A stretch of 64,000 nt of DNA from Escherichia phage vB_EcoM_3HA11: the sequence record MN342150. One strand, written 5' to 3'. Positions 57 through 25,087 of the stretch are shown one piece after another. A program made the position numbers and the translations under genes. Position 1 is the first letter of the stretch. Each line of letters opens with the position of its first letter. The notes beneath the pieces are model-generated. The model did not search any database and was not told the origin of the DNA. It saw only the letters and a list, made by a program, of their open reading frames with translations.

Positions 57-64
57 CTAAATAC
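57..64 (+). promoter_or_regulatory. Late-promoter-like box CTAAATAC
   Basis: CTAAATA(C/T) motif recurs 20-40 nt upstream of the start codons of structural genes in this window; resembles the T4 late promoter TATAAATA. Confidence 0.45.
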
Positions 65-92
65 CCCATATTGGTCATCCTTTATGGGGTAT
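61..92 (+). promoter_or_regulatory. 5' leader stem-loop (ATACCCCAT / ATGGGGTAT, 9-bp perfect stem) overlapping the G-run just upstream of the ATG
   Basis: Perfect inverted repeat 61..69 / 84..92 with 14-nt loop, directly downstream of the CTAAATA box and 5 nt before the start codon at 97. Confidence 0.45.
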
Positions 93-96
93 TATC

Positions 97-2193
97 ATGA
101 TTTCTCAATTCAATCAACCACGCGGCTCCACTTCCATAGAAGTTAACAAACAATCTATCGCTCGAAATTTCGGTGTCAAAGAAGACGAAGTCGTTTATTT
201 CACTGTCGGTATTGATCTCAGTGGATTTAAAGTAATTTATGATGAGTCTACCCAACGGGCTTATTCTCTCCCTTCCGGTATTGTTTCAGGGACAACTGCA
301 ATTAGTCTGGATGAAAGAGCTATCCTCACTCATTCCGCTGGCTCTGTTGACCTTGGGGAATTAGCAGTAAGCCGCGAAGAATATGTGACTTTACCTGGTT
401 CTTTTAATTTCGGCCATACCATTAATGTGAAAAATGAACTTCTTGTTCACGATGATGAAAAATATCGATGGGATGGTTCTTTGCCAAAGATAGTTGCCGC
501 TGGTTCTACACCTGAAACATCTGGTGGCGTTGGTATTGGTACATGGCTGAGTGTTGGTGACGCAGCATTTAGACAGGAAGCCAACAAAAAATTCAAATAT
601 TCAGTAAAGTTATCTGATTATTCTACATTACAGGATGCAGCGACAGCAGCCGTAGATGGATTGCTTATTGATGTTGACTACACTTTTACTGCAGATGAGA
701 GTGTAGATTTTAGCGGTAAAGTTTTAATCATTGAATGCAAGGGAAAATTCATTGGCGATGGTATGTTGGTTTGGAATGGTTTGGGTGCGGGTTCAGTAAT
801 TAAGAAACCGCACATGCATACTAAAACTACGCCGTATACTGTTTACCGATTCGATGCAAACGGTAATTGGGTTACAGACCCAACACAAGTTCTGGCATCT
901 GTTCAGCAGCGTTTGGATGTTGGATATAAGCCAAATATTAACGATTTAGATATTTGGGACGACCTTCCTGATAATGTAAAAAATCAGGTTGCTGGTGCTA
1001 CTTTGCGAATAATGAGCGGCGATAATATCATCGTAGAGAACCCAGAAGCTACATTTGGTGGTTATCTATTTACTTTATGTAATAGGATTCTTGTTAAGAA
1101 TCCACGCAATTTTATTGCTTTGGAATCGGGCATTACATTTGAGAACCATCATACAACTGCATGGGGTACTGGCAACTGGGTTGTTGGGGGTGAGATTAAA
1201 TATGGCTCTGGTTCCGCTGTACTGTTCATTCGCAATGATGGTGGTACAGACCATGATGGTGGAGTAAGGGATTTAATATCCTATCGCGTTGGAGAATCTG
1301 GTGTTAAAACCTATCAAAATGAAATAGGTGGTCGTTCAGCCAGGAACTACCGTTTAGTGTTCGACAATATAACTACAATCCAGTGTTACTATGATGGTAT
1401 TGATGTTAATGCTGACACAGGGTCGCCAACTGAACGTGTGGATGACTACTCACTCGCAGAGTATCCATGGTTCCACCTACCTACTCAACATATCATCCGT
1501 AATATTATTACTCGTGATTGTATGGGGATTGGTGCTTGGTGGGATGGTCAGAAAAATATTATTGATAATGTTGTTACTTATGAGGCCCATAAGGAAGGCG
1601 TCTTCGATAGGGGTACTAACAATGATATTACTAACATTACTGTAGTAGGTGCGAATAAGGATTTAACTAACCTAAATCAGATTACCTGTGAGGGAGGTAG
1701 TAGACTTCGTGGTATTAACATCCATGCATATACTACACAAGGTTACGCTATATACGCTCCGTCTTCAGAAGTAAGTAATGTTTCCTGTGCTGGTTCCGGT
1801 ACTAAGAAATTACTATGTACCTATATAAGCGATATTCAGGGAGGTAATATCAATGTTCAGCATAGTGCCAACCAAATGACACTTGCAATGCAACCTGCTA
1901 TGGGTGGTACTACAAACCCATCTTTGCTTATGACGGCAGATTGCCAGGTTGCTACACCAGGGGGTGAGGCAAGTATTGTCAAGCTTTCGGCAATTCAGGA
2001 GGGTGTACGTGTAGGTGAGTTTCAGCTTAACCGCTTAGGCTTTAAGCATATGAGTATACCTGCTGCCCCTTTACAATTACCAGAGAGCGCTCTGGAACAT
2101 AATTCATCTATAGGATTCTTCTTCGGAAGTGACGGAGCATTGAGGTTGCTTGCTAAAAAACCAGATGGAAGTTATGTAACATACACACTTTAA
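97..2193 (+). CDS. Tailspike / receptor-binding protein 1 (shared N-terminal anchor domain, distinct C-terminal domain)
   Basis: 698-aa ORF; first ~130 aa nearly collinear with the N-terminus of the ORF at 5129 (GSTS..SIAR.FG..EVVY..LSG.KVIYD..TQRAYSLP..GSVDLGELA..YRW.GSLPK) while the C-terminal parts differ: modular tailspike architecture. Confidence 0.6.
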   Translation: MISQFNQPRGSTSIEVNKQSIARNFGVKEDEVVYFTVGIDLSGFKVIYDESTQRAYSLPSGIVSGTTAISLDERAILTHSAGSVDLGELAVSREEYVTLPGSFNFGHTINVKNELLVHDDEKYRWDGSLPKIVAAGSTPETSGGVGIGTWLSVGDAAFRQEANKKFKYSVKLSDYSTLQDAATAAVDGLLIDVDYTFTADESVDFSGKVLIIECKGKFIGDGMLVWNGLGAGSVIKKPHMHTKTTPYTVYRFDANGNWVTDPTQVLASVQQRLDVGYKPNINDLDIWDDLPDNVKNQVAGATLRIMSGDNIIVENPEATFGGYLFTLCNRILVKNPRNFIALESGITFENHHTTAWGTGNWVVGGEIKYGSGSAVLFIRNDGGTDHDGGVRDLISYRVGESGVKTYQNEIGGRSARNYRLVFDNITTIQCYYDGIDVNADTGSPTERVDDYSLAEYPWFHLPTQHIIRNIITRDCMGIGAWWDGQKNIIDNVVTYEAHKEGVFDRGTNNDITNITVVGANKDLTNLNQITCEGGSRLRGINIHAYTTQGYAIYAPSSEVSNVSCAGSGTKKLLCTYISDIQGGNINVQHSANQMTLAMQPAMGGTTNPSLLMTADCQVATPGGEASIVKLSAIQEGVRVGEFQLNRLGFKHMSIPAAPLQLPESALEHNSSIGFFFGSDGALRLLAKKPDGSYVTYTL

Positions 2194-2210
2194 TTTATCT
2201 TGAGCAAAAA

Positions 2211-2235
2211 CCCCGCTTTGGCGGGGTTCTTATTA
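2211..2235 (+). terminator. Rho-independent terminator (ccccgc-tttg-gcgggg + T-rich tail)
   Basis: 6-bp GC stem, 4-nt loop, followed by ttcttatta; 18 nt after stop of ORF 97..2193. Confidence 0.6.
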
Positions 2236-2266
2236 TACCTTTGTTCATAAATTTTATTAGTTCAGA

Positions 2267-2274
2267 CTAAATAC
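2267..2274 (+). promoter_or_regulatory. Late-promoter-like box CTAAATAC
   Basis: Part of a ~95-bp intergenic cassette nearly identical to 1..96. Confidence 0.45.
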
Positions 2275-2302
2275 CCCATATTGGCAAATCCTTATGGGGT
2301 AT
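2271..2302 (+). promoter_or_regulatory. 5' leader stem-loop (ATACCCCAT / ATGGGGTAT), second copy
   Basis: Same inverted repeat as 61..92, upstream of the ATG at 2309. Confidence 0.4.
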
Positions 2303-2308
2303 TTTCAA

Positions 2309-5074
2309 ATGACCAGAAATGTAGAAGAATTATTCGGCGGCGTAATCACAGCTCCCCACCAGATTCCTTTCACGTATAAATCAAATGTCGGTGGAGAAAC
2401 TTTCCTTTCCTTGCCGTTCTATCCTGTCACTGGCGTAGTCACAATTAACGGCGGCATGCAAGTTCCGTTAGACAACTTCGAGATAGACGGGAATACGTTG
2501 AATCTCGGGCGCGCATTGTCCAAAGGCGATGTTGTGTATTGCTTATTCGATAAAATTCTTTCACCAGAAGACACTGCCAAAGGCATCCGCATATACAAAT
2601 TTCAAGCCGTGGGTGGAGAAACTGAATTCACGCCTGACTTTACTTCTTATGGTGTACAGTCTCTTTATATCGGTGGCGAGTACAAAACTCCTGATATAGA
2701 ATATTCGTACAACAGTACGACTGGGAAAGTGTCTTTGCAAACTGCATTGACTGCAGGCGTTTGGGTAGTCGCTGAAATCTCTGTTAAACAACCGAATATC
2801 AGTCCGGCGTTTGACCGCAGTATTCAAGAAATTGCCCGTTCTGCTAATGTGAAAGACTCTGAAGTCATCGTTAGTACGGACACCATATCTTTGTTGGATG
2901 GGAAGAAAGTTGTTTATGACATAGCGGCACAAACCAGTTATGGTTTACCAACCATTCCTGATGGTTCTGTCATTTCTACGATCTCAGACGGGAAATTGAA
3001 TTACAACCCAGGTGATGTGCAGGTTGATTTGTTGCCTTTAGAAGATTCATTTATTAATGTGATAAACACTCTGGGGCGCAATGATGGTGCCAAGTATATC
3101 GGAGAATGCCATTCTGTTGCTGATCTCAGGAATACTGAACCCACTATGGATGGACAACGCATTATTCTTAAGCAACACACTGCGGGTACTCTTCTTGGTG
3201 GAGGGGTATTCCGTGCGTTAATTGATGGTACAGGAAAGACTGATGATAACGGTACTGTGATCAAAACTGTTGGCGGCGCAGCCTGGTTACGTGTTAATGC
3301 TGATAGAGTTAACCCATTCATGTTTGGTGCTTTGGGTGGTTCTAATGATGATACTATTCCAGTACAATCTTGTGTGGACAGTGGTAAGGCCACACAATTA
3401 ACTGGTATACATTACGTTAGCAATATCCAGTTAAAATATAATACGTCGTCTATTTATGGGTCTGGATTACATTACTCCAGGTTGCATCAGTTGCCTTCTG
3501 CTACTGGGAATTGTATTACCATAAAAGATACATGCTCCCTTATTGTATTAGACTCCTTTGGGGTATATGGCACAGGTGCACAACAAGGCACATCATTTAC
3601 TGCGGGTACAACAGGTATCTATATAGAAACTCCTTCAGGTCTCTCAGCCGATTATCCGTTCCACACTACCGCAGACCCAAGACGCGACTTGTGTATTTCT
3701 AAGGTCCATATAGCAGGTTTTGATGAATATGGGTTAAATATTGATAGTGGTAACTTTAGTGTTACTACAGATTCTCTTTTAGTCAACCACATCAATCAGG
3801 TGGGCGTCCGTTGTGCTACTACTGATTGGACTTGGACAAATATCCAGGTTAATACCTGCGGTAAACAATGTCTGGTTCTTGATGGTTGTGGTAATGGTCG
3901 TATTATTGGTGGTAAATTCATTTGGGCTAACTGGCAACCTTATGGTACAGTAGGACAGTTCCCAGGCATTACTATTAATAATAGCCAGAATATGGTTATT
4001 AATGGTATTGAGGTACAAGATTGTGGCGGGAATGGCATTGAGATTAGCGATTCATATTCAATTTCCATGAACGGATTGAACACCAATCGTAACGGCATCA
4101 ACGCTAACAACACTTTCTACAACATCGTATTTAACAAAAGTGATGCAGTTATCAACGGATTCGTAGGACTCAATTATGCCGCGAATAGTGGTTCAGGTGC
4201 TAACTCTAGTGCGGGCAATTTTCAGTTCCTGTCTAATGATTGCAGCGTCACCATTAATGGTGTGGTTGAGACTGGTTATATGGGCATTAACTTTATTGGT
4301 GATAACAATATTATCAACCCCACAAATTCCGACCTGAGCATTAACGGATTGGTTAATTATTCCAAGACTGGTTTGCAAACCATGAACGAGACCCCTACAT
4401 TTGATGGTGTTAGCACTACACCTGTTTATGTAAGTGTCCCATCTTCTGTAGGGCAAGTAAATGGTCTGAGACTATCACAAGCCAACAAAGATAAATTACT
4501 GTACTCAAGAACAGCAGGTCCAGAAGGTATTACCATGGCTGCTGTTGTAGTACCTACCATATCTGGAGCTGAAGTATTTAACTTCATGGCCATTGGTTCA
4601 GGGTTTAGTGATACATCCAACAGTCTTCATCTTCAATTAGTTATAGACGCTTCCGGAAAACAAACAATTGCTTTGCTATTGGGGGGCGATGGTACAACCC
4701 AAATTTTATCTGGGGATTTACCTAACGACCTTAAACTACAAAGTGGTGTGCCATATCATATAGCTATTGGTGCTAAACCTGGATATTTCTGGTGGAGTAT
4801 TCTTAATATTCAGACGGGTAAGAGAATCAGACGGTCATTCCGAGGCGCTTATTTAGCTGTACCATTTAATTCTATATTCGGATTAACTTCTTCATTAACA
4901 TTCTTCTCGGATAGCAATGCTGGTGGGGATGCCTGTTCTGGTGTAGGTGCTAAAGTGTATGTTGGTATGTTCTCTTCTGAGAATGATTATGTAGCTTCAC
5001 GGTACTACAACCTGATTAATCCTGTAGACCCTAATAAGTTAATTAGTTACCGTATATTGGATTCTTCTATTTAA
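2309..5074 (+). CDS. Tailspike / tail fibre protein 2 with parallel beta-helix-like repeats
   Basis: 921 aa counted from the ATG at 2309 (ORF track opens at 2294; start chosen by analogy with the first cassette copy where the ATG inside the hairpin is not the start); Gly/Asn-rich repetitive segments (..VINGIEVQDCGGNGIEISD..NGLNTNRNGINANN..) typical of pectate-lyase-like beta-helices. Confidence 0.55.
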   Translation: MTRNVEELFGGVITAPHQIPFTYKSNVGGETFLSLPFYPVTGVVTINGGMQVPLDNFEIDGNTLNLGRALSKGDVVYCLFDKILSPEDTAKGIRIYKFQAVGGETEFTPDFTSYGVQSLYIGGEYKTPDIEYSYNSTTGKVSLQTALTAGVWVVAEISVKQPNISPAFDRSIQEIARSANVKDSEVIVSTDTISLLDGKKVVYDIAAQTSYGLPTIPDGSVISTISDGKLNYNPGDVQVDLLPLEDSFINVINTLGRNDGAKYIGECHSVADLRNTEPTMDGQRIILKQHTAGTLLGGGVFRALIDGTGKTDDNGTVIKTVGGAAWLRVNADRVNPFMFGALGGSNDDTIPVQSCVDSGKATQLTGIHYVSNIQLKYNTSSIYGSGLHYSRLHQLPSATGNCITIKDTCSLIVLDSFGVYGTGAQQGTSFTAGTTGIYIETPSGLSADYPFHTTADPRRDLCISKVHIAGFDEYGLNIDSGNFSVTTDSLLVNHINQVGVRCATTDWTWTNIQVNTCGKQCLVLDGCGNGRIIGGKFIWANWQPYGTVGQFPGITINNSQNMVINGIEVQDCGGNGIEISDSYSISMNGLNTNRNGINANNTFYNIVFNKSDAVINGFVGLNYAANSGSGANSSAGNFQFLSNDCSVTINGVVETGYMGINFIGDNNIINPTNSDLSINGLVNYSKTGLQTMNETPTFDGVSTTPVYVSVPSSVGQVNGLRLSQANKDKLLYSRTAGPEGITMAAVVVPTISGAEVFNFMAIGSGFSDTSNSLHLQLVIDASGKQTIALLLGGDGTTQILSGDLPNDLKLQSGVPYHIAIGAKPGYFWWSILNIQTGKRIRRSFRGAYLAVPFNSIFGLTSSLTFFSDSNAGGDACSGVGAKVYVGMFSSENDYVASRYYNLINPVDPNKLISYRILDSSI

Positions 5075-5082
5075 AAATATAC

Positions 5083-5100
5083 CCCTCTTCGGAGGGTATT
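5083..5100 (+). terminator. Terminator-like hairpin (ccctc-ttcg-gaggg) after tailspike 2
   Basis: 5-bp stem with ttcg tetraloop followed by tatttac; weak T-tract. Confidence 0.3.
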
Positions 5101-5128
5101 TACTAGAGAAAAACAGGAGATTCTTATT

Positions 5129-7363: not shown

Positions 7364-7370
7364 AATACAA

Positions 7371-7396
7371 GCCCCCAATAAGGGGGCTTTCTTTTG
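7371..7396 (+). terminator. Rho-independent terminator (gccccc-aataa-gggggc + tttcttttg)
   Basis: Perfect 6-bp GC stem followed by T-tract, 8 nt after stop of tailspike 3. Confidence 0.7.
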
Positions 7397-7487
7397 CTAT
7401 GTCTCGTTAACCTGACAGGAACTGGAAGTTCAAAACTATCAGGTGGAGGAACTGGGTTTTTATTTCTATCTGTTTGTTGGCTGTATA

Positions 7488-7495
7488 CTAAATAT
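7488..7495 (+). promoter_or_regulatory. Late-promoter-like box CTAAATAT
   Basis: 33 nt upstream of the ATG at 7528. Confidence 0.4.
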
Positions 7496-7527
7496 CTCTA
7501 TAAAATGGCACTAGATGGAGCATCAAA

Positions 7528-12366: not shown

Positions 12367-12418
12367 ATAATGTTGAAAGGTGGGCGTAAAGCCCACCAAA
12401 CCAATAGAGGATAAAAAT

Positions 12419-13731: not shown

Positions 13732-13734
13732 GAG

Positions 13735-13972: not shown

Positions 13973-14003
13973 TTATCAATTCCTCAAAAGAATTAATGAT
14001 TGA

Positions 14004-14011
14004 CTAAATAC
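14004..14011 (+). promoter_or_regulatory. Late-promoter-like box CTAAATAC
   Basis: 23 nt upstream of the ATG at 14034; followed by imperfect inverted repeat taccttc..gagggta. Confidence 0.4.
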
Positions 14012-14033
14012 CTTCAAAATTGAGGGTAAAGTC

Positions 14034-14675: not shown

Positions 14676-14677
14676 TC

Positions 14678-15376
14678 ATGGCCAGACCATTTGAAAAATA
14701 TTTCTACCATGAATCGTTGTTGAAATACATTCATGTCTTCAACGCTATCATGTCAGATTTAAAAGTCAAAACCGAACGTGGCTTGATGGAAATCCCGCTG
14801 CATATGGCTATTGGCCGTCGCAATGACCTCAACAGGAACGTACCAGCTAATATGCTGCCATTTGCAACAATGTCCTTCGGTCAATTCGAAATTAATAAAC
14901 AAGTGACCAAGTCGTATCATAATCAGATATCGACTGCAACTGCGCGGTCCAAACAACGAATTCCGATCATTATAGATTTTGAATATAACATCAGAACGAA
15001 GAAACTGGTCGAAATGCTACAGGTGTTGGAACAAATTTATTCTGTGTTCACTCCTTCCATTGATTGTCAGATAAAAGACAACGATACGTTATCTCAAGAT
15101 CAAAACGTAAAGATCATGTTGACATCCCATACCATTTCCGATAACTGGGAAGGGGATGCCGCTGAATCACCCCATATAGATTGCACCTTTAATTTTCAAT
15201 TACATGGACACATTTATGGCGAAGATTATTGGGTCGATGATGGCTCTGGCGGTGGTGATCCGAACGTTATCAAAGAGATAATTATTGAAATGTCTAATGA
15301 TTTGAACATGCCATGGTCGGAACTTCCTGAGTGGTTCCGAGTTGATAAAGACGGCATACATCATCCGGAGGATTGA
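14678..15376 (+). CDS. Tail sheath stabiliser / tail completion protein, gp15-like
   Basis: 232 aa; position between gp14 and terminase small subunit as in T4; assignment mainly by synteny. Confidence 0.5.
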   Translation: MARPFEKYFYHESLLKYIHVFNAIMSDLKVKTERGLMEIPLHMAIGRRNDLNRNVPANMLPFATMSFGQFEINKQVTKSYHNQISTATARSKQRIPIIIDFEYNIRTKKLVEMLQVLEQIYSVFTPSIDCQIKDNDTLSQDQNVKIMLTSHTISDNWEGDAAESPHIDCTFNFQLHGHIYGEDYWVDDGSGGGDPNVIKEIIIEMSNDLNMPWSELPEWFRVDKDGIHHPED

Positions 15377-15378
15377 TC

Positions 15379-16059
15379 ATGAGCAATATGTCAGAAAGGT
15401 TACTCGCTACGCTTGATGCGGTGACCGCCCGAGACGAAGTTGGGAAGGAGGCGATGGAGGCTGTCGCCCCTCGTCCAGGTATTGACTTCGATGAAAATAC
15501 AGGTGAATGGTTTGGTGAACGTCCGGAAGGGTATCAGCCGATTCCTGAACCGCCTTCATTGGAGGATATTGCTTCCAAGGAATCCAAAGTACCTGAGTTT
15601 GCGGATACTGATGCTACAACGGATTACAAACGGATACGCGACACAACATATGCCATGCAAGAAGCCACAATGTTCATGATGGGACAAGCCGCTAAATTGG
15701 CTGCATCCACAGAAGCTCCGCGAGCATTTTCCGTGTTTCGTGAATTGGGCGAACTCATGCGCGGCCTGAACAAAGACCTGATGGAAAACCAAAAAACCAT
15801 CAAAGCTGTGACAGGGGATAAAGAACCGCCGACTGATGACACGACAGTGGATGTTACCACTTCACCCGACGGGACCACAACAGTATCTGTTGGGAAAAAG
15901 GCGAGATCTTCGCGCGATTTATTGAAGACGATCGAAGATGCACGCCGCCGCGCTGAAGAAAGAGCACAAGCAAAGGCCGCACAACAACCAGAAGATGAAA
16001 TCATTGATGGTGAAACAGTTGACGTGAAGGAAGAAGACGATGGCGTATCAGAAGCGTGA
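15379..16059 (+). CDS. Terminase small subunit (gp16-like)
   Basis: ATG after GGAGGA; immediately upstream of and overlapping the large terminase gene; assignment by synteny. Confidence 0.5.
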   Translation: MSNMSERLLATLDAVTARDEVGKEAMEAVAPRPGIDFDENTGEWFGERPEGYQPIPEPPSLEDIASKESKVPEFADTDATTDYKRIRDTTYAMQEATMFMMGQAAKLAASTEAPRAFSVFRELGELMRGLNKDLMENQKTIKAVTGDKEPPTDDTTVDVTTSPDGTTTVSVGKKARSSRDLLKTIEDARRRAEERAQAKAAQQPEDEIIDGETVDVKEEDDGVSEA

Positions 16060-18250: not shown

Positions 18251-18253
18251 TCA

Positions 18254-18261
18254 CTAAATAT
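18254..18261 (+). promoter_or_regulatory. Late-promoter-like box CTAAATAT
   Basis: 42 nt upstream of the tail sheath ATG at 18303. Confidence 0.4.
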
Positions 18262-18302
18262 CTTTCAAATTGAGCGAAACTCTACCGAGAAGGAATAACA
18301 TT

Positions 18303-20198
18303 ATGGCAACTCAAAGCTTCAGCGTTGCGCCGTCCGTACAGTGGACTGAGCGTGATGCCACGCTTCAGACTTCTCCGTCCGTGGTTGTTCAGGGCGCGAC
18401 AGTCGGCAAATTTCAATGGGGTGAAGTCGAACTCCCAGTGCTGGTGACTGGTGGTGAGACGGGTTTGGTGAAGAAATTCTTCAAACCTAATGACAGCACT
18501 GCGACAGATTTCCTTGTGATTGCAGACTTTTTGTCTTACAGCTCTATGGCATGGGTCACTCGTGTTGTTGGTCCTCTGGCCAAGAACTCTGTCACCAAAG
18601 GCCAGACAGCCATCACGATCAAAAACAAGCTGGATTTTGAAACAGCAAGTCCGTCAGCGTCTATCACTTGGGCTGGTCGTTATCCAGGATCTCTGGGGAA
18701 TGACATCGCCATCAATGTTTGTGACTCCGCTGGATTCCCGACATGGGAATTCCGTAACAACTTTGCGTACGCACCTCAGTCTGGTGAATTCCATGTTGTG
18801 GTTGTAGACAAAGTTGGGCGCATTACTGACTCTGCTGGTGCGGTTGGTCAGGTTGACCGTATCTCTGTTTCTGGCACGGCAACCGCAGCTGGCACCATCA
18901 GTGTGGCGGGTGAAGATATCGCATATCTGGATACTGATACTCCGGCCACTTTGGCGACCAAAATTGGCGCGGCGCTGACGGCGCTGACAGATGTTTATTC
19001 TTCTGTCGTTGTTAAGTCTAACACTGTCATCGTGACCCATAAAGCCATTGGTCCCCAGACAGTTACTGCTATTGTTCCAGATGATAAGGGGCTGACTGCA
19101 ACCGCCGTGATTACCACTGTTGGCGCATCTGGTTCTATTATCGAAAAATACGAACTCATGCAGAACACACAGGGTTCCAAAAAGTCCGATGGCGCGAATG
19201 CGTACTTCAAAGATGTCATCAATGATACATCAAATTGGGTGTACACCTTCGCCACCGCTCTGGCCGCAGGTGTTGTTGAATTAGAAGGCGGCGTAGACGA
19301 CTACAATATCAACCGTGTCGCGGCTATCCAAGTTCTGAACAACGCCGAAGCATATGATGCGAAGCCAGTATTTGCATACTGTGAAGAGTTGATTGAACAA
19401 CAGGCATTAATCGACTTGTCTACCGAGCGAAAAGACACCGTTTCCTTCGTGTCGCCTTTGCGTGATACTGTGGTCGGCAACCGTGGCCGTGAGATGGACG
19501 ATGTGGTCGCTTGGCGTGAAAGTCTGGTGCGCGACTCCTCCTATTTCTTCATGGACGACAACTGGGCATACGTGTACGATAAATACAACGATAAGATGCG
19601 CTGGATCCCTGCTTGCGGCGGTACAGCGGGTGTTTGGGCACGTAGTATTGAAATCGCGGGTATCTACAAATCTCCTGCGTTCCACAACCGTGGCAAATAC
19701 AACAACTACAATCGAATGGCGTGGTCTGCGTCTTCCGATGAACGTGCCGTGTTGTACCGCAACCAGATTAACAGCATCGTGACCTTCTCCAATGAAGGTA
19801 TCGTGTTGTATGGTGACAAAACTGGCCTGACTCGTCCGTCTGCTTTCGATCGTATCAATGTTCGCGGTCTGTTTATTATGGCAGAACAGAACATCGCTGC
19901 AATCGCCAAATATTACCTTGGTGAGAACAATGATGCGTTCACTCGCAGCCTGTTCAGCAACGCTGTTCGTCCTTATATTCGCCAACTGGCAAATATGGGT
20001 GCGATCTACGATGGTAAAGTCAAGTGTGACGAAGATAACAACACTGCTGATGTTATCGCAGCCAACACCATGGTTGCAGGCATTTGGTTGAAGCCTGAGT
20101 ACAGCATTAATTGGGTATATTTGGATTTTGCTGCAGTTCGACCAGATATGGAATTCTCCGAGATCGAATCAGGCGGCGGCATCGTTGCTGCATCCTAA
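18303..20198 (+). CDS. Tail sheath protein (gp18-like)
   Basis: 631 aa from ATG after GAGAAGGA; position between terminase and tail tube; size close to T4 gp18. Confidence 0.75.
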   Translation: MATQSFSVAPSVQWTERDATLQTSPSVVVQGATVGKFQWGEVELPVLVTGGETGLVKKFFKPNDSTATDFLVIADFLSYSSMAWVTRVVGPLAKNSVTKGQTAITIKNKLDFETASPSASITWAGRYPGSLGNDIAINVCDSAGFPTWEFRNNFAYAPQSGEFHVVVVDKVGRITDSAGAVGQVDRISVSGTATAAGTISVAGEDIAYLDTDTPATLATKIGAALTALTDVYSSVVVKSNTVIVTHKAIGPQTVTAIVPDDKGLTATAVITTVGASGSIIEKYELMQNTQGSKKSDGANAYFKDVINDTSNWVYTFATALAAGVVELEGGVDDYNINRVAAIQVLNNAEAYDAKPVFAYCEELIEQQALIDLSTERKDTVSFVSPLRDTVVGNRGREMDDVVAWRESLVRDSSYFFMDDNWAYVYDKYNDKMRWIPACGGTAGVWARSIEIAGIYKSPAFHNRGKYNNYNRMAWSASSDERAVLYRNQINSIVTFSNEGIVLYGDKTGLTRPSAFDRINVRGLFIMAEQNIAAIAKYYLGENNDAFTRSLFSNAVRPYIRQLANMGAIYDGKVKCDEDNNTADVIAANTMVAGIWLKPEYSINWVYLDFAAVRPDMEFSEIESGGGIVAAS

Positions 20199-20206
20199 GA
20201 CAACAA

Positions 20207-20230
20207 CCCCGCTTCGGCGGGGTTTTTATT
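20207..20230. terminator. Rho-independent terminator (ccccgc-ttcg-gcgggg + tttttatttcc)
   Basis: Perfect 6-bp GC stem with T-tract; between convergent sheath gene and - strand endonuclease gene. Confidence 0.7.
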
Positions 20231-21014
20231 TCCTACTGATATGCCATCCTGTGGTATTTGTTCTCTTCAATGAAGATTTCCTGTAAGGTTTAGGGATGGG
20301 ATTCTGCATCCTTCCAGCTAATGCCATGTTGAAAGATTCTATACACAAACATTGTTCTTGACAAAATTTGTTTAGATTCTTGATTTCATATTCTTCACCA
20401 GCTGGTGAAAGAAGTGTAAACCATCTCCCGAGAGATCGATTTATTTTCTCTTGAAATTCAGGATTCATACGCACTTTGTTCATAGCGATACGAAGATTTT
20501 CTTTACATTTTGGATTCTCGTATGCCTTTGTAATTCGCCGGGATTGCAATTCTTTCTTTTCTTCTGTCCACACGACCGCTTGGGATTGGGACATTTTTGT
20601 TTTACTTTCTTCTTTATGTACTAAACCGTATTGTTTTGCCACAAACAAAACATTCCAACCAGCATCATTAACTGGTTTCATTCCGATGAATTCCCTGCTT
20701 TCTATATCATATGCTGCGGCCATACCAGATATGTCTATCTGACCGCCACGGCTGATATTCAGCCCACCTTCAGAGATATGAGTCTTATGCAATTTTATGA
20801 GTTCAATTTCGTTAGAGTTTAGGTCATCGACATGGCATTCCAGCAATATTTCTTGGCTGGTAATTCCATACTTTCGGATATAGTTGTAGAGGATAGTTTT
20901 ATTCCCTCTTCTTGCTTCACCCAAATGTTCATTTACTCGATACTCAACGCCGTTTCTAGTTTGTCCGATATACTTCTTTTTACCGACGGTTAACATGTAG
21001 ATATGACCGATCAT
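20226..21014 (-). CDS. GIY-YIG homing endonuclease
   Basis: N-terminus MIGHIYMLTVGKKKYIGQT..RVNEH matches GIY-YIG motif; start at ATG preceded by GGAGGTG on the - strand. Confidence 0.75.
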   Translation of the reverse strand: MIGHIYMLTVGKKKYIGQTRNGVEYRVNEHLGEARRGNKTILYNYIRKYGITSQEILLECHVDDLNSNEIELIKLHKTHISEGGLNISRGGQIDISGMAAAYDIESREFIGMKPVNDAGWNVLFVAKQYGLVHKEESKTKMSQSQAVVWTEEKKELQSRRITKAYENPKCKENLRIAMNKVRMNPEFQEKINRSLGRWFTLLSPAGEEYEIKNLNKFCQEQCLCIESFNMALAGRMQNPIPKPYRKSSLKRTNTTGWHISRK

Positions 21015-21055
21015 ATAACACCTCCAAGAGCATAATACCCCGAAATTGTTCAACA

Positions 21056-21063
21056 CTAAATAA
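21056..21063 (+). promoter_or_regulatory. Late-promoter-like box CTAAATAA
   Basis: 18 nt upstream of the + strand endonuclease gene. Confidence 0.3.
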
Positions 21064-21081
21064 AATAGAGGTGAATTTGAA

Positions 21082-21540
21082 ATGATATACGCATACAAAA
21101 TTGAAATGGTTTGTAATGGAAAGGTCTACATCGGTGTGACCAATGACCCACAACGAAGATATGATCAGCATTTTGCGAATGCCTTTCATTATGGAGTCCA
21201 AAGTGAATTGTATGACGCCATGCGTAAGTATGGAACATCTGGATTTACTTTCGTTGTAATTGCTCAGACCGATGAAGTCCATAAATGGGAATTAGAGAAG
21301 CAACTCATCGCTCAATATAATTCTTATGAGATGGGTTACAACATGAATAAAGGCGGTAATGATGGAAGTCATATGCTGGGTAAAACTGCAGCAAAATTGA
21401 CATCCACAGGTGAACACATTGGTCTTGTTTCTCTCATAGATCCCCGTTGGGAATTGTGTGAAATCGAACCTGTTTCAAGTAATGTTCACCATGGTTTCGA
21501 TCTTTCTTCTATGAAGATTAAAAGATTGACGACTAATTAG
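21082..21540 (+). CDS. GIY-YIG homing endonuclease (short, Seg-like)
   Basis: MIYAYKIE..GKVYIGVT..RRYDQH GIY-YIG motif; RBS GAGGTG. Confidence 0.75.
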   Translation: MIYAYKIEMVCNGKVYIGVTNDPQRRYDQHFANAFHYGVQSELYDAMRKYGTSGFTFVVIAQTDEVHKWELEKQLIAQYNSYEMGYNMNKGGNDGSHMLGKTAAKLTSTGEHIGLVSLIDPRWELCEIEPVSSNVHHGFDLSSMKIKRLTTN

Positions 21541-21570: not shown

Positions 21571-22104
21571 ATGGCGACAGTCAATGAGTTTCGCGCAGCC
21601 ATGTCACGAGGGGGCGGCGTACAACGCCAACACCGCTGGCGTGTGACTGTAAACTTTCCTTCTTTTGTTGCTGGTTCCGACACAATTCGCGACGTGTCAT
21701 TGCTGGCTGTAACTACCAACACCCCGACAGGTCAGCTGGGTGAAATTCTGGTGCCCTGGGGTGGTCGTGAACTTCCATTCCCAGGCGACCGTCGTTTCGA
21801 AGCACTGCCTGTAACATTCATTAACGTTGTGAACAACGCGCCGTACAACGCATTTGAAGTGTGGCAGCAATTCATCAATGGTAGTGAAAACAACCGCGCC
21901 AGCGCGAATCCAGATGATTATTTCCGTGATATCATCATGGAGCTTCTGGATGCGAATGACAATGTCACCAAGACATGGACTTTGCAGGGTGGCTGGCCTC
22001 AAAACCTCGGCCAATTGGAACTCGATATGTCTGCGATGGACTCTTATACACAGTTCACCGTCGATCTGCGTTATTTCCAAGCCGTGTCAGACAAATCTTT
22101 ATAA
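21571..22104 (+). CDS. Tail tube protein (gp19-like)
   Basis: 177 aa; C-terminal segment GGWPQNLGQLELDMSAMDSYTQFTVDLRYFQ resembles recalled T4 gp19 GLWPTNVGELQLDWDSNNEIQTFEVTLALDYW. Confidence 0.8.
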   Translation: MATVNEFRAAMSRGGGVQRQHRWRVTVNFPSFVAGSDTIRDVSLLAVTTNTPTGQLGEILVPWGGRELPFPGDRRFEALPVTFINVVNNAPYNAFEVWQQFINGSENNRASANPDDYFRDIIMELLDANDNVTKTWTLQGGWPQNLGQLELDMSAMDSYTQFTVDLRYFQAVSDKSL

Positions 22105-22171
22105 TGTCCTCGGTGCTGGGGGAATCATATTCCCCCTCACTAATTACAAGAAAATGTTGAGGACTTAGATC

Positions 22172-23854
22172 ATGGCTGGATACGGCAGAGGGTTCTTCGG
22201 TTTGTTTGGCGGCGGCGGTTTGGTGAACGCTAAAGTCGACACCGATAAGTTAGCCCAAAAACAAGATGAACGGTTGCTAACCAAAGCGACAGTTGTTGCT
22301 CTGGACGACGCTCAAGACGGTTCTATAATCCTTCAGGGTGGTGCGAACACCTACAACTATGTTGGCGTTGAAAGTGAACTTCTCAGCGTTAAAACAGTTG
22401 TGGAAGAATATCAGTCCATGGCTCAACAGCCTGAAATTCGCAAAGCGGTGGACATTATTGTCAATGATGTTGTCACCTGTGAGGAAGATGAAACTCCAGT
22501 GACAGTAAACCTTGACAAAGTTGAAGGGATATCTGATACTGTTAAAGAATCTATCACTGAATGCTTCAAAGAAGTTATGCACTTGATGGACTTTGACAAT
22601 ACGGCATATCAGAAGATCCGGAAATGGTATGTTGACGGTCGACAAGCATATCATGTCATCGTTGATCCCACGAATAAAAAAGGCGGGATCAAGAAATTAG
22701 TTATGCTTGATTCTCGTTGCATTCGTCCTGTCTATATCGTTGAGAAGGCGATGCGTGAAGGCGGTATTGAAGCAATAGAATCCGTAACATTGAAGTATTA
22801 TTACAACCCGAATTATAATCGAAACCAATTCACTGGCCAATCTGGTACTTCCCAGAACTTCCAGCCTTCACAGCAAGAACTCGTATTCGATGACGAAAGC
22901 ATTGTTTACATCGATAGTGGTGAAGAGCCATTGGCCAATGGTATTGTCCCAGGCCTTTTAAATCCTGCTATCCGTCCGTTGAACAACCTGGTTACGACTG
23001 AAGATGCGACTGTAATTTATGCCATCACTCGCGCCCCTGAGAAACGCGCATTCTATCTTGACGTCGGTACTCTCGGTAAGAAATCTGCTGAAGAATACAT
23101 GACCATGATGATGGGTAAATTCAAAAACCGCAACGCATATGACCGCACCACTGGTAAGATAACAGGTAATGCCCATCTTATGGGTATTGCAGAGGATTAT
23201 TGGTTGCCGCGCCGCGAAGGTCAGAATGCTACAGAGATCGCGACTGTTGGGGGTGGGAATCAATTGGGTGAAATGGATCACGTGAACTATTTCCGTGAAA
23301 AACTCTATGATGCTCTAATGATCCCTAAGAGCCGCCTCCAAGAGGAAGGATCTATTAACATTGGGGGTTCTAACCTTGCGGAGATTACACAGGAAGAGCT
23401 GCGTTTCAGCAAGTTCTGTGCTGGGTTACGTCGTCGTTACTCCCATTTCTTTATGGAGTTTTTACGTCGCCAATTAATTTTGAAAGGCGTGACTGACGAA
23501 AAAGATTGGAATGAAAAAATCAAGCCGTTTATTAAGTTTGAATTCACTTCTGATAGCTATATTCGTGAGCAACAAGAAAACGCCATATTAAATGATCGCC
23601 TGGCTTCTCTGAACACTGTTGAGCCTTTTGTTGGTTCTATATTCTCCATCGATTATGTCATGCGGAATGTTCTGCGTATGTCAGACGAAGAAGTTAAAGA
23701 ACAACAGGCTAAGATCGCGGAAGAGAAGAAGAAAGGTCTCTATCCGAAGGTTCAAGCAGATGAAACTGGCAATTATAGTGGTTCAGATGTTAGTCCGTTG
23801 AAGTTTAAACCTGAGACTCTCCCATTCTCCGGTTCAACAGACGATAGTATTTAA
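22172..23854 (+). CDS. Portal vertex protein (gp20-like)
   Basis: 560 aa; segments IYAITRAPEKRAFYLDVG, EDYWLPRREGQNATE and C-terminal MSDEEVKEQQAKIAEE resemble recalled T4 gp20. Confidence 0.85.
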   Translation: MAGYGRGFFGLFGGGGLVNAKVDTDKLAQKQDERLLTKATVVALDDAQDGSIILQGGANTYNYVGVESELLSVKTVVEEYQSMAQQPEIRKAVDIIVNDVVTCEEDETPVTVNLDKVEGISDTVKESITECFKEVMHLMDFDNTAYQKIRKWYVDGRQAYHVIVDPTNKKGGIKKLVMLDSRCIRPVYIVEKAMREGGIEAIESVTLKYYYNPNYNRNQFTGQSGTSQNFQPSQQELVFDDESIVYIDSGEEPLANGIVPGLLNPAIRPLNNLVTTEDATVIYAITRAPEKRAFYLDVGTLGKKSAEEYMTMMMGKFKNRNAYDRTTGKITGNAHLMGIAEDYWLPRREGQNATEIATVGGGNQLGEMDHVNYFREKLYDALMIPKSRLQEEGSINIGGSNLAEITQEELRFSKFCAGLRRRYSHFFMEFLRRQLILKGVTDEKDWNEKIKPFIKFEFTSDSYIREQQENAILNDRLASLNTVEPFVGSIFSIDYVMRNVLRMSDEEVKEQQAKIAEEKKKGLYPKVQADETGNYSGSDVSPLKFKPETLPFSGSTDDSI

Positions 23855-23861
23855 AGTTCAA

Positions 23862-23869
23862 CTAAATAT
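23862..23869 (+). promoter_or_regulatory. Late-promoter-like box CTAAATAT
   Basis: 27 nt upstream of the ATG at 23896. Confidence 0.4.
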
Positions 23870-23895
23870 AGAAAATTAATTCGGAGATCAAAATC

Positions 23896-24066
23896 ATGAG
23901 CGCAATTGATATCGTTCGTGCAGTAATTGACGGTGACACTGAAACTGCTGTTGCAGAATGCAACATGGAACTTGATGCACGTAGTCAAGAACTATTGAAC
24001 CAAGGCACAGCATATGTTCTGGATTCTATCGCAGCCGATATGAATTCAAACAACAACGGCCAGTAA
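23896..24066 (+). CDS. Small prohead core protein candidate (position of T4 gene 67)
   Basis: 56-aa ORF (below the ORF-track cutoff) between portal and protease genes; acidic; assignment by position only. Confidence 0.3.
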   Translation: MSAIDIVRAVIDGDTETAVAECNMELDARSQELLNQGTAYVLDSIAADMNSNNNGQ

Positions 24067-24074
24067 GGAGATGC

Positions 24075-24392
24075 ATGATGGAAATCACAGAGATCGCCAC
24101 GTTCGCTGATTTCCTGGCCTCTCGTATGGACGAGCAGCGAGTCATCGATAAAGTGAACGCTCGTGGTAAACGCCGCCGCCGCTTGAAATGTGCCCCTGGG
24201 TTCAAATTGTCGGCTGATGGTTCACGTTGTGAAGTTATGGACGCCAGCGAACGTCGTGTTCGCAAGATCGGCAACCGCAAAGCCCTCCGCTCTAAAAAGC
24301 GTATGGGAATGGGCTATCAACGTAAAATCGAGCGCCGCAAGAAAAAGGCTATGAAGTTCCGCAAAATGATGGGACTGAGTAAGAACAAGTAA
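24075..24392 (+). CDS. Basic prohead core / internal head protein candidate (position of T4 gene 68)
   Basis: 105 aa, Arg/Lys-rich C-terminal half (KRRRRLK, RKKKAMKFRK); between portal and prohead protease. Confidence 0.4.
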   Translation: MMEITEIATFADFLASRMDEQRVIDKVNARGKRRRRLKCAPGFKLSADGSRCEVMDASERRVRKIGNRKALRSKKRMGMGYQRKIERRKKKAMKFRKMMGLSKNK

Positions 24393-24399
24393 GGAGTTT

Positions 24400-25068
24400 A
24401 TGATGAAACTGTTGCGTGAGATCACAGCGATAGGGAAGGATCTTCAAATCGGTGAGGCCACAACCTCAACTGGTGGGAAGGCCATGTTCATCGAAGGTCC
24501 GTTTGTGATGTGTAACCAAGTCAACCGTAACGGGCGTAACTATGATCTGCAGAAAGTGGGTATTCCTGCTGTCGAAGCATACGACAAAGAGTATATCCAA
24601 GATCGTCGCGCAATCGGTGAAGTCACACATCCTGACTATCCTTTCCCTAATTTAGTGGAAGCTGCGCTCAAAACCGAATCCCTTCGCTGGGAAGGCACTA
24701 ATGCCATCGGTCGGGCGCGAATTTTAAACACACCAAAAGGCCAAATCATCCGTGCATTGGCCGAAGCAGACTTCAATCTGGCCGTATCTACTCGTGGCCT
24801 GGGTGAGACTAAGTCGGTAAGCGGTTATGATGATGTTCAGCCTGGCTTTATGCTTACCGCCGTTGACGCAGTTGACCGTCCTTCTGGACAAGTTTGTTAT
24901 GTTAAGGCTGTGAGTGAATCTGTTGAATGGCAGCTGGACGAGGCTTCGGGTATTTGGATGCCTCGTGATGTTAAAGGGAAAGTTGTAGACCAGTTGGTGA
25001 AAGCCAATATCCAGGTTGAAGACGATTTCCTGCGCCGCCTTGATGCAGCATTGAATCATCTGGGCTGA
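24400..25068 (+). CDS. Prohead core protease (gp21-like)
   Basis: 222 aa, size and position as T4 gp21 directly upstream of scaffold and major capsid genes. Confidence 0.6.
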   Translation: MMKLLREITAIGKDLQIGEATTSTGGKAMFIEGPFVMCNQVNRNGRNYDLQKVGIPAVEAYDKEYIQDRRAIGEVTHPDYPFPNLVEAALKTESLRWEGTNAIGRARILNTPKGQIIRALAEADFNLAVSTRGLGETKSVSGYDDVQPGFMLTAVDAVDRPSGQVCYVKAVSESVEWQLDEASGIWMPRDVKGKVVDQLVKANIQVEDDFLRRLDAALNHLG

Positions 25069-25079
25069 ATTTCAGCTCA

Positions 25080-25087
25080 CTAAATAC
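25080..25087 (+). promoter_or_regulatory. Late-promoter-like box CTAAATAC
   Basis: 28 nt upstream of the scaffold gene ATG at 25115. Confidence 0.4.

Follow-up and report, generated by a model that had tools for sequence, protein, structure and literature searches.

Distribution and placement of the CTAAATA box

Which signal turns on the late genes of ViI-like phages, and which factor reads it, is the question raised by a short box, CTAAATA, that recurs upstream of structural genes in the window (the whole stretch of DNA analysed, 64,000 nt). The window belongs to a Kuttervirus (Ackermannviridae, ViI-like) with 98-99% identity to phage ECML-4. The box was confirmed as a real feature of the window, and it almost certainly serves as the promoter of late genes in this ViI-like phage, with a diverged T4-type sigma factor recognising it.

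Exact matches to CTAAATAY numbered 10, all on the plus strand, against a shuffle mean of 3.2; 1 of 100 shuffles attained 10. The CTAAATA core occurred 12 times, 11 of them on the plus strand:

57..63, plus strand: CTAAATA box CTAAATACCCC, 33 nt 5' of the tailspike gene 97-2193; predicted late start near 69
2267..2273, plus strand: CTAAATA box CTAAATACCCC, 35 nt 5' of the second tailspike gene (ATG 2309), in a ~95-nt cassette that repeats 1-96
4850, minus strand: intragenic CTAAATA core, antisense
7488..7494, plus strand: CTAAATA box, 33 nt 5' of the VrlC-like large structural gene 7528-12366
14004..14010, plus strand: CTAAATA box, 23 nt 5' of the neck gene gp14 (14034-14675)
18254..18260, plus strand: CTAAATA box, 42 nt 5' of the tail sheath gene (ATG 18303)
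21056..21062, plus strand: CTAAATA box with A as eighth base, 19 nt 5' of the GIY-YIG homing endonuclease gene 21082-21540
23862..23868, plus strand: CTAAATA box, 27 nt 5' of the small ORF 23896-24066, first gene of the prohead-core/protease cluster
25080..25086, plus strand: CTAAATA box, 28 nt 5' of the scaffold gene 25115-25954
33927..33933, plus strand: CTAAATA box, 25 nt 5' of the UvsW-like helicase gene 33959-35464, overlapping the exonuclease gene stop codon
63275..63281, plus strand: CTAAATA box inside a terminator-type hairpin loop, 78 nt 5' of the gene 63360-63977
63862, plus strand: intragenic CTAAATA core

Nine of the 12 core sites lay within 12-50 nt 5' of a co-oriented start (background 2.3%, binomial p=4e-13), at observed distances of 19-42 nt on the same strand. 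Ten touched non-coding DNA, which makes up 6.1% of the window (p=4e-11); the two intragenic sites were 4850 and 63862. Several late genes, among them those for tail completion gp3 and terminase, lacked a recognisable box.

An earlier, sequence-only reading had listed eight sites 18-42 nt upstream of genes. With start codons transferred from ECML-4, the distance from the 8-mer measured 18-41 nt, and seven coordinates were exact (57, 2267, 7488, 14004, 18254, 23862, and 25080). At 21056 the core 7-mer is present with A in the eighth position (CTAAATAA), outside the C/T that had been taken as a rule and that is a preference only (Y in 17 of 19 sites). The supposed restriction to morphogenesis genes is only partly right because further sites exist at 33927, 63275, 63862, and 4850; boxes also precede the UvsW helicase gene (33927, missing from the list of eight) and the homing endonuclease gene, as late boxes do in T4-type phages.

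Conservation in ECML-4 and across genera

A genome-wide motif search, which the sequence-only reading had proposed, bore out this placement. In ECML-4, 17 of the 24 CTAAATA sites lay 12-50 nt 5' of a co-oriented start (background 2.45%, p=1.3e-22), and four of these 17 were on the minus strand, 5' of minus-strand genes. Of the 24 sites, four were intragenic, and another was an intergenic orphan. Genes downstream of ECML-4 boxes included those for the baseplate tube cap, gp6 wedge, a tail protein, tailspikes, VrlC, gp14, sheath, prohead core, scaffold, UvsW, a RuvC-like resolvase, and a homing endonuclease; no replication enzymes were found among those with known function.

The genera Kuttervirus, Taipeivirus, Agtrevirus, Limestonevirus, Miltonvirus, and Nezavisimistyvirus were compared, together with a Vibrio phage in part. 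CTAAATA was present at orthologous positions in 6-7 genera despite diverged flanks. Its distance was kept 5' of VrlC, gp14, sheath, scaffold, and UvsW, where the box flanks do not align. The box of the VrlC-like gene (7488) was kept in six genera with unrelated flanks, that of the tail sheath gene (18254) in seven lineages including the Vibrio phage, and that at 33927 in six genera; the scaffold box (25080) was invariant in six genera. At the position of 23862, Agtrevirus and Limestonevirus carry CTAAGTA.

Consensus and tolerated variants

The sequence-only reading had named CTAAATA "rather than" the T4 late promoter TATAAATA. The wording was too strong: in the correct register, xCTAAATA is set against TATAAATA, and the two differ by C for A at -12 and a lost T at -13. 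Some conserved late-gene sites, moreover, replace the C at -12 by A or T, or carry G or T as fifth base. The variants CTAAGTA, CTAATTA, TTAAATA, and even TATAAATA itself occur 5' of the capsid, portal, tube, and other genes:

21533..21539, plus strand: variant CTAATTA, 31 nt 5' of the tail tube gene 21571-22104, within the endonuclease gene end; CTAAATA in Serratia and Erwinia phages and some Kutterviruses
22140..22146, plus strand: variant CTAATTA, 25 nt 5' of the portal gene 22172-23854, with a hairpin immediately before; the upstream box is CTAAATA in Serratia and Erwinia phages
25999..26005, plus strand: variant CTAAGTA, 40 nt 5' of the major capsid gene 26046-27368, beginning 8 nt past a terminator-type hairpin; aligned position CTAAATA in Serratia and Erwinia phages
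30543..30550, plus strand: T4-consensus TATAAATA, 27 nt 5' of the small ORF 30578-30748
30749..30755, plus strand: variant TTAAATA (TTAAATACCCCC), 23 nt 5' of the gene 30779-31507; orthologous sites CTAAATA, ATAAATA, or TATAAATA

Among 21 one-mismatch variants tested, with p values uncorrected for that number, most were unenriched (in ECML-4, CAAAATA 0/38, CTAAAGA 0/18, and CTAAATT 0/15). Five were clearly enriched: ATAAATA, TTAAATA, CTAATTA, CTAAGTA, and, more weakly, CTAAAAA (3/18, p=0.009). Enrichment of CTGAATA and CTAAACA was marginal (p=0.02-0.03). The CTAAGTA 5' of regA lies partly on a conserved coding end, K-A-K-stop, and its conservation may therefore reflect coding.

The sequence logo held no information from -27 to -14, and no second conserved element appeared at -35 or downstream at -10 spacing. 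Nothing being conserved 5' of the box, there is no -35 element, and the absence of information 5' of -13 argues for a -10-only promoter, like T4 late promoters. On the downstream side the logo showed Y at -5 (17/19), C at -4 (11/19), and an A-rich stretch from +1 to +3. Sigma-70-like sites were not enriched in the structural block (34 in 1-20000 versus 42 expected). A distinct sigma-70-like motif, TTCAAT-N14-TATAAT, was found in four intergenic regions at 41-54 kb, with looser copies near 29 and 48 kb.

A gp55-type sigma factor and its partners

The sequence-only reading had also put forward a gp55-like sigma factor as the protein that recognises the box. This is supported, since box placement, conservation, the -10-only logo, and the family and fold of the sigma factor all agree; its start, given as TTG 57463, is most likely ATG 57478 instead. 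The genes concerned are as follows:

57478..58248, plus strand: gp55-type late sigma factor gene, 256 aa (PHROG 234, fold match)
36146..36814, plus strand: gp45-type sliding clamp gene (PHROG 223, E=4.8e-65)

A profile search matched the candidate to PHROG 234, "late sigma transcription factor" (E=3.6e-53), which is also the annotation of its ECML-4 orthologue. Its AlphaFold model (pLDDT 74.7) had as top PDB match 7d7c_F, gp55 in the T4 RNA polymerase-promoter open complex (probability 1.00, TM 0.69 on target), with sigma-E region 2 ranking next. Identity to T4 gp55 was 18% (E=0.004), and searches of Pfam, NCBIfam, and PDB sequences gave no match. By profile and predicted fold, the product is a member of the gp55 family. 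The gene adjoins those for gp47 and gp46. T4 has a-gt, mobB, and four small ORFs in the ~3 kb that separate its gene 55 from 47.

The T4 gp45 clamp activates late transcription. The clamp candidate in the window scored 21.2 bits against Pfam gp45-slide_C, under the cut-off. A gp33-like gene was not found within the window; ECML-4 encodes a gp33-like co-activator (PHROG 254).

Leader hairpins at box sites

Several boxes lie in predicted RNA hairpins, listed with folding energies calculated from the box and from the predicted late start:

60..93, plus strand: hairpin in which the box end and CCCC pair with GGGG, the tailspike ribosome-binding site; -19.6 kcal/mol, z=-5.9 from the box; -5.2 kcal/mol, z=-0.7 from the late start, which lies downstream of the 5' arm
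2269..2304, plus strand: leader fold at the second tailspike box; -16.7 kcal/mol, z=-4.5; from the late start -3.8 kcal/mol, z=-0.2
14009-14028, plus strand: hairpin burying GAGGG in the gp14 leader; -9.2 kcal/mol, z=-3.9; from the late start -0.4
[quoted passage not shown]
33927-33956, plus strand: hairpin burying GGGGG in the UvsW leader; -8.0 kcal/mol, z=-2.1; from the late start 0
63264..63297, plus strand: terminator-type hairpin followed by a T-run, box in the loop; -20.8 kcal/mol, z=-6.5; predicted late start (63287) inside the 3' arm

Folded from the box, the five leaders (57, 2267, 14004, 30749, and 33927) thus reach -8 to -19.6 kcal/mol (z=-2.1 to -5.9); folded from the predicted late start, they reach 0 to -5.2 kcal/mol (z near 0). 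The hairpin at 30751-30776, which a simple terminator scan left unflagged, has a 12-pair consensus across genera, with three pairs kept through changes on both sides; a consensus structure for the UvsW leaders was not obtained. The layout at 63264..63297 is identical at ECML-4 155385. In the read-through context of ECML-4, the ribosome-binding region was paired at 9 of 17 box genes versus 37 of 167 (Fisher p=0.009). The genome-wide hairpin effect was modest (Mann-Whitney p=0.016) and concerned about half of the sites only. Hairpin-embedded late promoters have T4-type precedents at e, soc, 49, I-TevI, segB, and Aeh1 mobE, and those at e, soc, 49, and I-TevI likewise hide the ribosome-binding site (PMC3014915; PMC2988022).

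Proposed mechanism and alternatives

From what was seen directly (box sequence, placement, conservation, sigma family and fold, and predicted RNA folding), it is highly probable that CTAAATA is the late promoter element of this Kuttervirus, that the gp55-type sigma factor reads it, and that hairpins accompany it at some sites. By analogy with T4 we infer that the box is active as a promoter, that it acts late, and where +1 lies. CTAAATA would be the -12 to -6 element, with transcription starting ~6 nt past the last A, and the functional consensus would be looser, (C>A/T)TAA(A>G/T)TA and then a pyrimidine. After the onset of DNA replication, host core RNA polymerase carrying the sigma factor would, as in T4, recognise this single -10-like element without -35 contact, helped by the gp33-like co-activator and the gp45 clamp. 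It would drive the tailspike, VrlC-like, neck, sheath, tube, portal, prohead-core, scaffold, and capsid genes and, among non-structural genes, those for UvsW helicase and the homing endonuclease. We also infer a function for the hairpins. At the five leaders, the box and its C-rich bases would form the 5' arm and the ribosome-binding site the 3' arm, so that read-through transcripts from upstream would be untranslatable; late transcripts, starting inside the hairpin and lacking the 5' arm, would have a free ribosome-binding site, as in T4 gene e. With the 63275 box in the terminator loop, late transcripts would therefore escape the terminator.

The same hairpins could mean that the box is mainly an RNA-level element, an arm or loop acting in translation, stability, or termination, and that its conservation is that of RNA structure. 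At the five sites, base pairs do link the box AAATA and C-run to a U-run and the ribosome-binding region, and boxes occupy terminator loops at 63275 and ECML-4 155385. Yet a hairpin is missing at about half of the conserved boxes that are well placed, among them VrlC 7488, gp174 23862, endonuclease 21056, and the capsid and portal variants. Moreover, from genus to genus the 7 nt stay fixed and it is the loop and the pairing partner that change, whereas a structural arm should covary, and orientation and start-codon distance suit a promoter for which the phage encodes a matching sigma factor. This explanation is improbable.

Slightly more improbable still is that the box serves another phage regulator, or forms part of a sigma-70-dependent middle-type promoter, rather than being read by gp55. 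The evidence tying the box to gp55 is indirect, ViI-like phages are without MotA/AsiA, and their early/middle transcription control has been called unclear (PMC3184105). Against this, the logo lacks a second element, the box differs at one main position from the experimentally defined T4 gp55 element in identical register, what lies downstream is orthologous to T4 late genes, and TTCAAT-N14-TATAAT marks other regions, with no intergenic copy in the structural block. Chance, or the composition of A+T-rich intergenic DNA, might be invoked for so short a motif, given the one shuffle in 100 that yielded 10 CTAAATAY matches. It is effectively refuted by the placement statistics (p=4e-13 in the window, 1e-22 in the ECML-4 genome) and by the persistence of the box at orthologous positions in several genera although its flanks have diverged; one-mismatch neighbours of comparable A+T richness were also unenriched.

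Relation to known late promoters

The motif "CTAAATAcCcc" reportedly originates from Adriaenssens et al. 2012, Arch Virol 157:2035. It is cited as one of two regulatory motifs that an Ackermannviridae phage genome contains entire (PMC7283392). It belongs to the same phage group, the ViI-like phages (formerly Viunalikevirus, today Ackermannviridae), has the same sequence including the C-rich extension, lies upstream of structural genes, and shows no essential difference from the window box. CTAAATA is therefore not novel, and the finding is correct but ordinary because the motif was already published for the ViI-like group. What this analysis adds is the set of variants tolerated at positions 1 and 5, the footprint across genera, the box as 5' arm of a hairpin burying the ribosome-binding site at five genes, and, as a proposed reason for the "cCcc" extension, its complementarity to that site. 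The literature searched yielded no transcript-start or time-course data for Ackermannviridae phages.

The T4 late promoter TATAAATA (-13 to -6; gp55, gp33, and the gp45 clamp) is also -10-only with no -35 element. TAAATA and its register are identical, both boxes lie upstream of orthologous late genes, and gp55-, gp45-, and gp33-like proteins are encoded. The window phage differs in preferring C at -12 (A in T4), in lacking the -13 T preference, and in tolerating G/T at the fifth position; its sigma factor is ~70 aa longer than T4 gp55, with a tail predicted to be disordered and acidic.

Against gp55 of Aeromonas phage PX29, which we take to be related to Aeh1 and used as its stand-in, the window sigma factor showed 24% identity (E=6e-8). 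The late promoter derived for Aeh1, a T4-like Aeromonas phage, is CTAAATA from -12, and its gp55 is described as divergent (Nolan et al. 2006, PMC1524935). The 7-mer is thus identical, with C at -12 a strong determinant, although Aeh1 belongs to the Straboviridae, unlike the window phage. The shared preference for C may be inherited or convergent.

Identity and gene map of the window

The window is a Kuttervirus sequence. A 6.2-kb stretch of its structural block was 99.4% identical to Salmonella phages FSL SP-063 and SP-029 and 98 to 99% identical to Guerrero, STML-13-1, and Escherichia phage ECML-4, the last of which is classified in Ackermannviridae, Cvivirinae, Kuttervirus. The alignment with ECML-4 covered nearly the entire window at 92 to 99.6% identity. 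The ECML-4 annotation was carried over by tblastn and differing open reading frames (ORFs) were added, giving a map of 77 genes in which 6.1% of the window is non-coding; for genome-wide tests, the complete ECML-4 genome was joined from five pieces. Differences from ECML-4 included a non-aligning stretch holding the ORFs 43552-43815 and 43806-44225, and gene 51354-52022, which was only 38% identical to its counterpart.

Placement of the CTAAATA box

The heptamer CTAAATA (the box), a candidate late-promoter element, occurred 12 times in the window, with 11 copies on the + strand. Nine of the 12 ended 19 to 42 nt upstream of a co-oriented start codon (P = 4e-13; background for a random position and strand, 2.3%), close to the spacing of 18 to 42 nt given in a sequence-only reading of this DNA, and 10 touched non-coding DNA (P = 4e-11). 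The longer form CTAAATAY had 10 copies, all on the + strand, against 3.2 expected. Seven of the eight coordinates in the sequence-only reading (57, 2267, 7488, 14004, 18254, 23862, and 25080) were exact. The eighth, 21056, listed as CTAAATA(C/T), reads CTAAATAA, and the following sites were missing from the list:

4850, - strand: intragenic CTAAATA
33927, + strand: CTAAATA overlapping the exonuclease stop codon, 25 nt before the UvsW-like helicase gene
63275, + strand: CTAAATA within the loop of a strong hairpin that precedes a T-run; gene 63360-63977 starts 78 nt downstream
63862-63869, + strand: CTAAATAT, intragenic in gene 63360-63977; the next gene begins about 108 nt farther on, close to the end of the window

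The intragenic copy at 63862 is also present in ECML-4, at 151032, and may be an internal promoter or a chance occurrence.

The search of the whole ECML-4 genome gave the same picture: 17 of 24 CTAAATA copies were in promoter position (background, 2.45%; P = 1.3e-22), including 4 on the minus strand ahead of minus-strand genes. T4-type late promoters precede late genes (virion, lysis, and late recombination), and the boxes were likewise found upstream of, and co-oriented with, genes of this late class. The virion genes of known role downstream of ECML-4 boxes encoded the baseplate tube cap, the gp6 wedge, a tail protein, the tailspikes, VrlC, gp14, the sheath, the prohead core, and the scaffold; the other genes of known role encoded UvsW, a RuvC-like resolvase, and a homing endonuclease. 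No replication-enzyme gene was among the known-role genes downstream of boxes in the window or the ECML-4 genome. The proposed restriction to morphogenesis genes is therefore only partly right, since boxes also precede the genes for UvsW, the resolvase, and the homing endonuclease.

Conservation and specificity of the box

Structural regions were compared with those of five other Ackermannviridae genera (Taipeivirus, Agtrevirus, Limestonevirus, Miltonvirus, and Nezavisimistyvirus), one related Vibrio phage, and 23 further viral contigs; in the search for related loci, a single-protein query recovered close relatives only, and an alignment query reached more genera. Upstream of the VrlC, gp14, sheath, scaffold, and UvsW genes, the box was kept across genera at a nearly constant distance from the start codon, and its flanks were often unalignable. 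Several window genes had variant boxes at positions where other lineages have the canonical one: the capsid variant CTAAGTA (25999) and the CTAATTA variants of the portal (22140) and tube (21533) genes all correspond to CTAAATA in Serratia and Erwinia phages, and in place of TTAAATACCCCC at 30749 other lineages carry CTAAATA, ATAAATA, or the T4 late consensus TATAAATA. ATAAATA and TATAAATA were thus found at conserved sites in addition to CTAAATA. One exact T4 consensus was present in the window:

30543-30550, + strand: TATAAATA, 27 nt before the small ORF 30578-30748

This site is conserved and reads ATAAATA in other lineages. Since such variants stand at orthologous CTAAATA positions, the functional consensus, as read from these comparisons, is (C>A/T)TAA(A>G/T)TA. 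CTAAGTA upstream of regA (38304) was also considered and may be a promoter, but a conserved coding end overlaps it.

Specificity was assessed by scoring all 21 one-mismatch neighbors of CTAAATA for promoter placement in ECML-4, with a P value for each variant. Clear enrichment was seen for ATAAATA (5/20), TTAAATA (4/15), CTAATTA (4/9), and CTAAGTA (2/4); that of CTAAAAA was weaker (3/18; P = 0.009 as a per-variant value among 21 variants tested), and that of CTGAATA and CTAAACA was marginal on the same per-variant basis. The T4 consensus TATAAATA itself had four copies in ECML-4, three of them in promoter position. Base composition does not explain this pattern, because the equally A+T-rich neighbors CAAAATA (0/38) and CTAAATT (0/15) showed no enrichment in promoter position in ECML-4.

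Two adjacent GIY-YIG homing-endonuclease ORFs of opposite orientation separate the sheath gene from the tube gene (20199-21540):

20226-21017, - strand: GIY-YIG homing-endonuclease ORF without an ECML-4 counterpart
21082-21540, + strand: GIY-YIG homing-endonuclease ORF whose 3' end contains the variant box of the tube gene

At this interval, ECML-4 has a different endonuclease with its own CTAAATAT box.

Promoter architecture

A logo of 19 sites reproduces the published motif 'CTAAATAcCcc' and shows what appears to be a -10-only promoter. Each position from -27 to -13 held 0.34 bit or less, and no -35 or other upstream element was seen in the 19 sites; Y occurred at -5 in 17 of 19 and C at -4 in 11 of 19, and +1 to +3 were A-rich. 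Sigma-70-like sites were not enriched in the structural block (34 versus 42 expected).

A second conserved motif, of the general form TTCAAT-N13-15-TAnnnT, marks intergenic regions as TTCAAT-N14-TATAAT at 40996, 45217, 51297, and 53932; less exact copies stand near 29000 and 48080. Intergenic copies were absent from the structural block. The motif resembles a sigma-70 promoter, probably an early one, and is the second of the two published for the ViI-like phage group.

Relation to published motifs

CTAAATA, starting from -12, was derived as the late promoter of the T4-like Aeromonas phage Aeh1, which has a divergent gp55 (Nolan et al. 2006, PMC1524935), and the same paper places the T4 late promoter TATAAATA at -13 to -6. 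From these registers, the right alignment is xCTAAATA against TATAAATA, in which CTAAATA agrees with six of the seven T4 positions from -12 to -6. The claim that CTAAATA stands instead of the T4 element is therefore too strong, the main difference being C for A at -12.

In 2011, Kutter et al. still described the late element of ViI-like phages as unidentified (PMC3184105), and Anany 2011 used TATAAATA with up to one mismatch as a search motif. In a 2020 paper on an Ackermannviridae phage, 'CTAAATAcCcc' is one of two listed regulatory motifs that were found whole in the phage genome (PMC7283392); the LIMEstone paper states no motif sequence, and promoters are not covered in a 2024 Ackermannviridae review. 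The window, from an Ackermannviridae genome, matches the published Viunalikevirus motif including its pyrimidine- or C-rich extension, with agreement over the full 11 nt at sites 57 and 2267. The motif reportedly originates from Adriaenssens et al. 2012. The literature search found no transcript-start mapping or RNA-seq for Ackermannviridae. The CTAAATA late-promoter finding is thus correct and already known, and it adds little by itself because the motif is in the literature.

The gp55-type sigma factor and its partners

The sequence-only reading had named a gp55-like sigma as the factor recognizing the box, and the candidate belongs to this family by profile and by fold:

57478 (ATG) to 58248, + strand: gp55-type sigma candidate, PHROG 234 ("late sigma transcription factor")

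The PHROG match (E = 3.6e-53) spanned profile positions 4 to 177 of 181; Pfam, NCBIfam, and PDB sequence searches gave no match. The protein was about 27% identical to annotated gp55 of cyanophages and others and collinear with T4 gp55 in BLASTP at 18% identity (E = 0.004). In Foldseek, the top PDB match of an AlphaFold model built with 19 homologs (pLDDT 74.7) was 7d7c_F (probability 1.00; TM 0.69 on the target), which is gp55 within the T4 RNA polymerase open complex; sigma-E region 2 ranked next. The candidate thus resembles T4 gp55 in both sequence and a sigma region-2-like fold. It is about 70 amino acids longer than T4 gp55, and residues 211 to 256 (58108-58248) form an acidic, low-confidence tail beyond the PHROG profile. 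The C terminus of T4 gp55 binds the sliding clamp, and by analogy this tail may hold a clamp-binding motif. The gp45 clamp is encoded in the window (PHROG 223, E = 4.8e-65), and a gp33-like coactivator was found only outside it, in the near-identical ECML-4 (PHROG 254, E = 4.2e-23), so counterparts of T4 gp55, gp33, and gp45 are all encoded, that of gp33 being known from ECML-4. Comparison with the gp55 of PX29, a presumed relative standing in for Aeh1, is only weakly suggestive of C at -12 deriving from a gp55 lineage shared with Aeh1-type phages. ViI-like phages modify T in their DNA (PMC5889632), and transcription with this sigma may therefore need a thymidine-hypermodified template.

The sigma gene adjoins the gp47 and gp46 genes. 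In T4, genes 55 and 47 share a strand and are about 3 kb apart, separated by a-gt, mobB, and four small ORFs. The neighboring gp47/SbcD-like gene contains a perfect 514-bp tandem duplication (58488-59001 and 59002-59515) that breaks it into two ORFs, 58235-59011 and 59130-59864. The repeated unit occurs only once in ECML-4, and the duplication could be an assembly artifact or a genuine gene disruption.

Overall, the CTAAATA observation is confirmed, and its reading as a late promoter recognized by a gp55-like sigma is supported, with consensus, register, gene set, and site list corrected. On this reading, replication-coupled, gp55-dependent transcripts would start about 6 nt downstream of the boxes at late times. 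The T4-type late-gene switch would thereby extend to ViI-like phages, its promoter specificity shifted by one base, which is useful for annotating or engineering these phages, widely used in biocontrol, and provides natural sigma and promoter variants for studying how gp55 reads position -12.

Hairpins at the boxes

The apparent sole fresh angle is the coupling of the promoter with ribosome-site hairpins and terminators. By the T4 rule, transcription would start 6 nt after the box, and the C-rich bases at -5 to -2 would then lie outside the late mRNA. At 57, 2267, 14004, 30749, and 33927, these bases, together with the last part of the box, form base pairs with the purine-rich ribosome-binding site. 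Folding from the box gave -19.6, -16.7, -9.2, -16.6, and -8.0 kcal/mol, respectively (z = -5.9 to -2.1), and folding from the predicted late start gave -5.2, -3.8, -0.4, 0, and 0 kcal/mol (z near 0); at these five window sites, a stable hairpin in the read-through transcript is thus predicted to pair the Shine-Dalgarno sequence or the start codon. In the read-through context of ECML-4, the ribosome-binding region was paired in 9 of 17 box genes and 37 of 167 others (Fisher P = 0.009), and the accessibility gain at the predicted late start was 0.19 for box genes versus 0.09 for controls. The hairpin before gene 30779 was kept in all genera, with changes on both sides in 3 of 12 pairs (8 sequences). 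In the UvsW leaders, individual lineages form different stems, and RNAalifold found no consensus in an automatic alignment because loop lengths differ. In two cases, 63275 and ECML-4 155385, the box lies within a terminator loop, so that a late transcript would begin in the 3' arm and escape termination. The hairpin at 30751-30776 was considered as a terminator and dropped, the simple terminator scan giving no support, and an Rfam scan of the window gave no matches.

A late promoter in a ribosome-site hairpin is known at T4 e, soc, 49, I-TevI, and segB and at Aeh1 mobE (PMC3014915; PMC2988022). In T4 the device is known from few genes, whereas its use in the window phage is apparently wider. 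By analogy, Ackermannviridae may routinely embed the late promoter either in a terminator loop or in the 5' arm of a hairpin sequestering the ribosome-binding site, and so gate late genes. Read-through transcripts would then yield no protein from the tailspike, neck, UvsW, and other late genes, whose translation would require gp55-initiated mRNAs. In the published motif, the 'cCcc' tail would be an anti-Shine-Dalgarno sequence, not a promoter determinant, and would be explained by the pairing of its C-rich bases with the ribosome-binding site. The chances of this gating are about even, because roughly half of the sites fit and the start site is a predicted one; if it is true, the device of a few T4 genes becomes a family-wide design.

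Both tailspike genes are preceded by a nearly identical cassette of about 95 nt (1-96 and 2211-2308) comprising a terminator hairpin, a CTAAATACCCC box, and a ribosome-site hairpin, and these repeats could be recombination points for swapping of tailspike modules. In ECML-4 (12683, outside the window), a CTAAATACCC box and a ribosome-site hairpin precede the RuvC-like resolvase region, an arrangement reminiscent of T4 gene 49 with its late promoter and hairpin. Downstream of this hairpin, the first ATG comes about 40 nt ahead of the annotated start.
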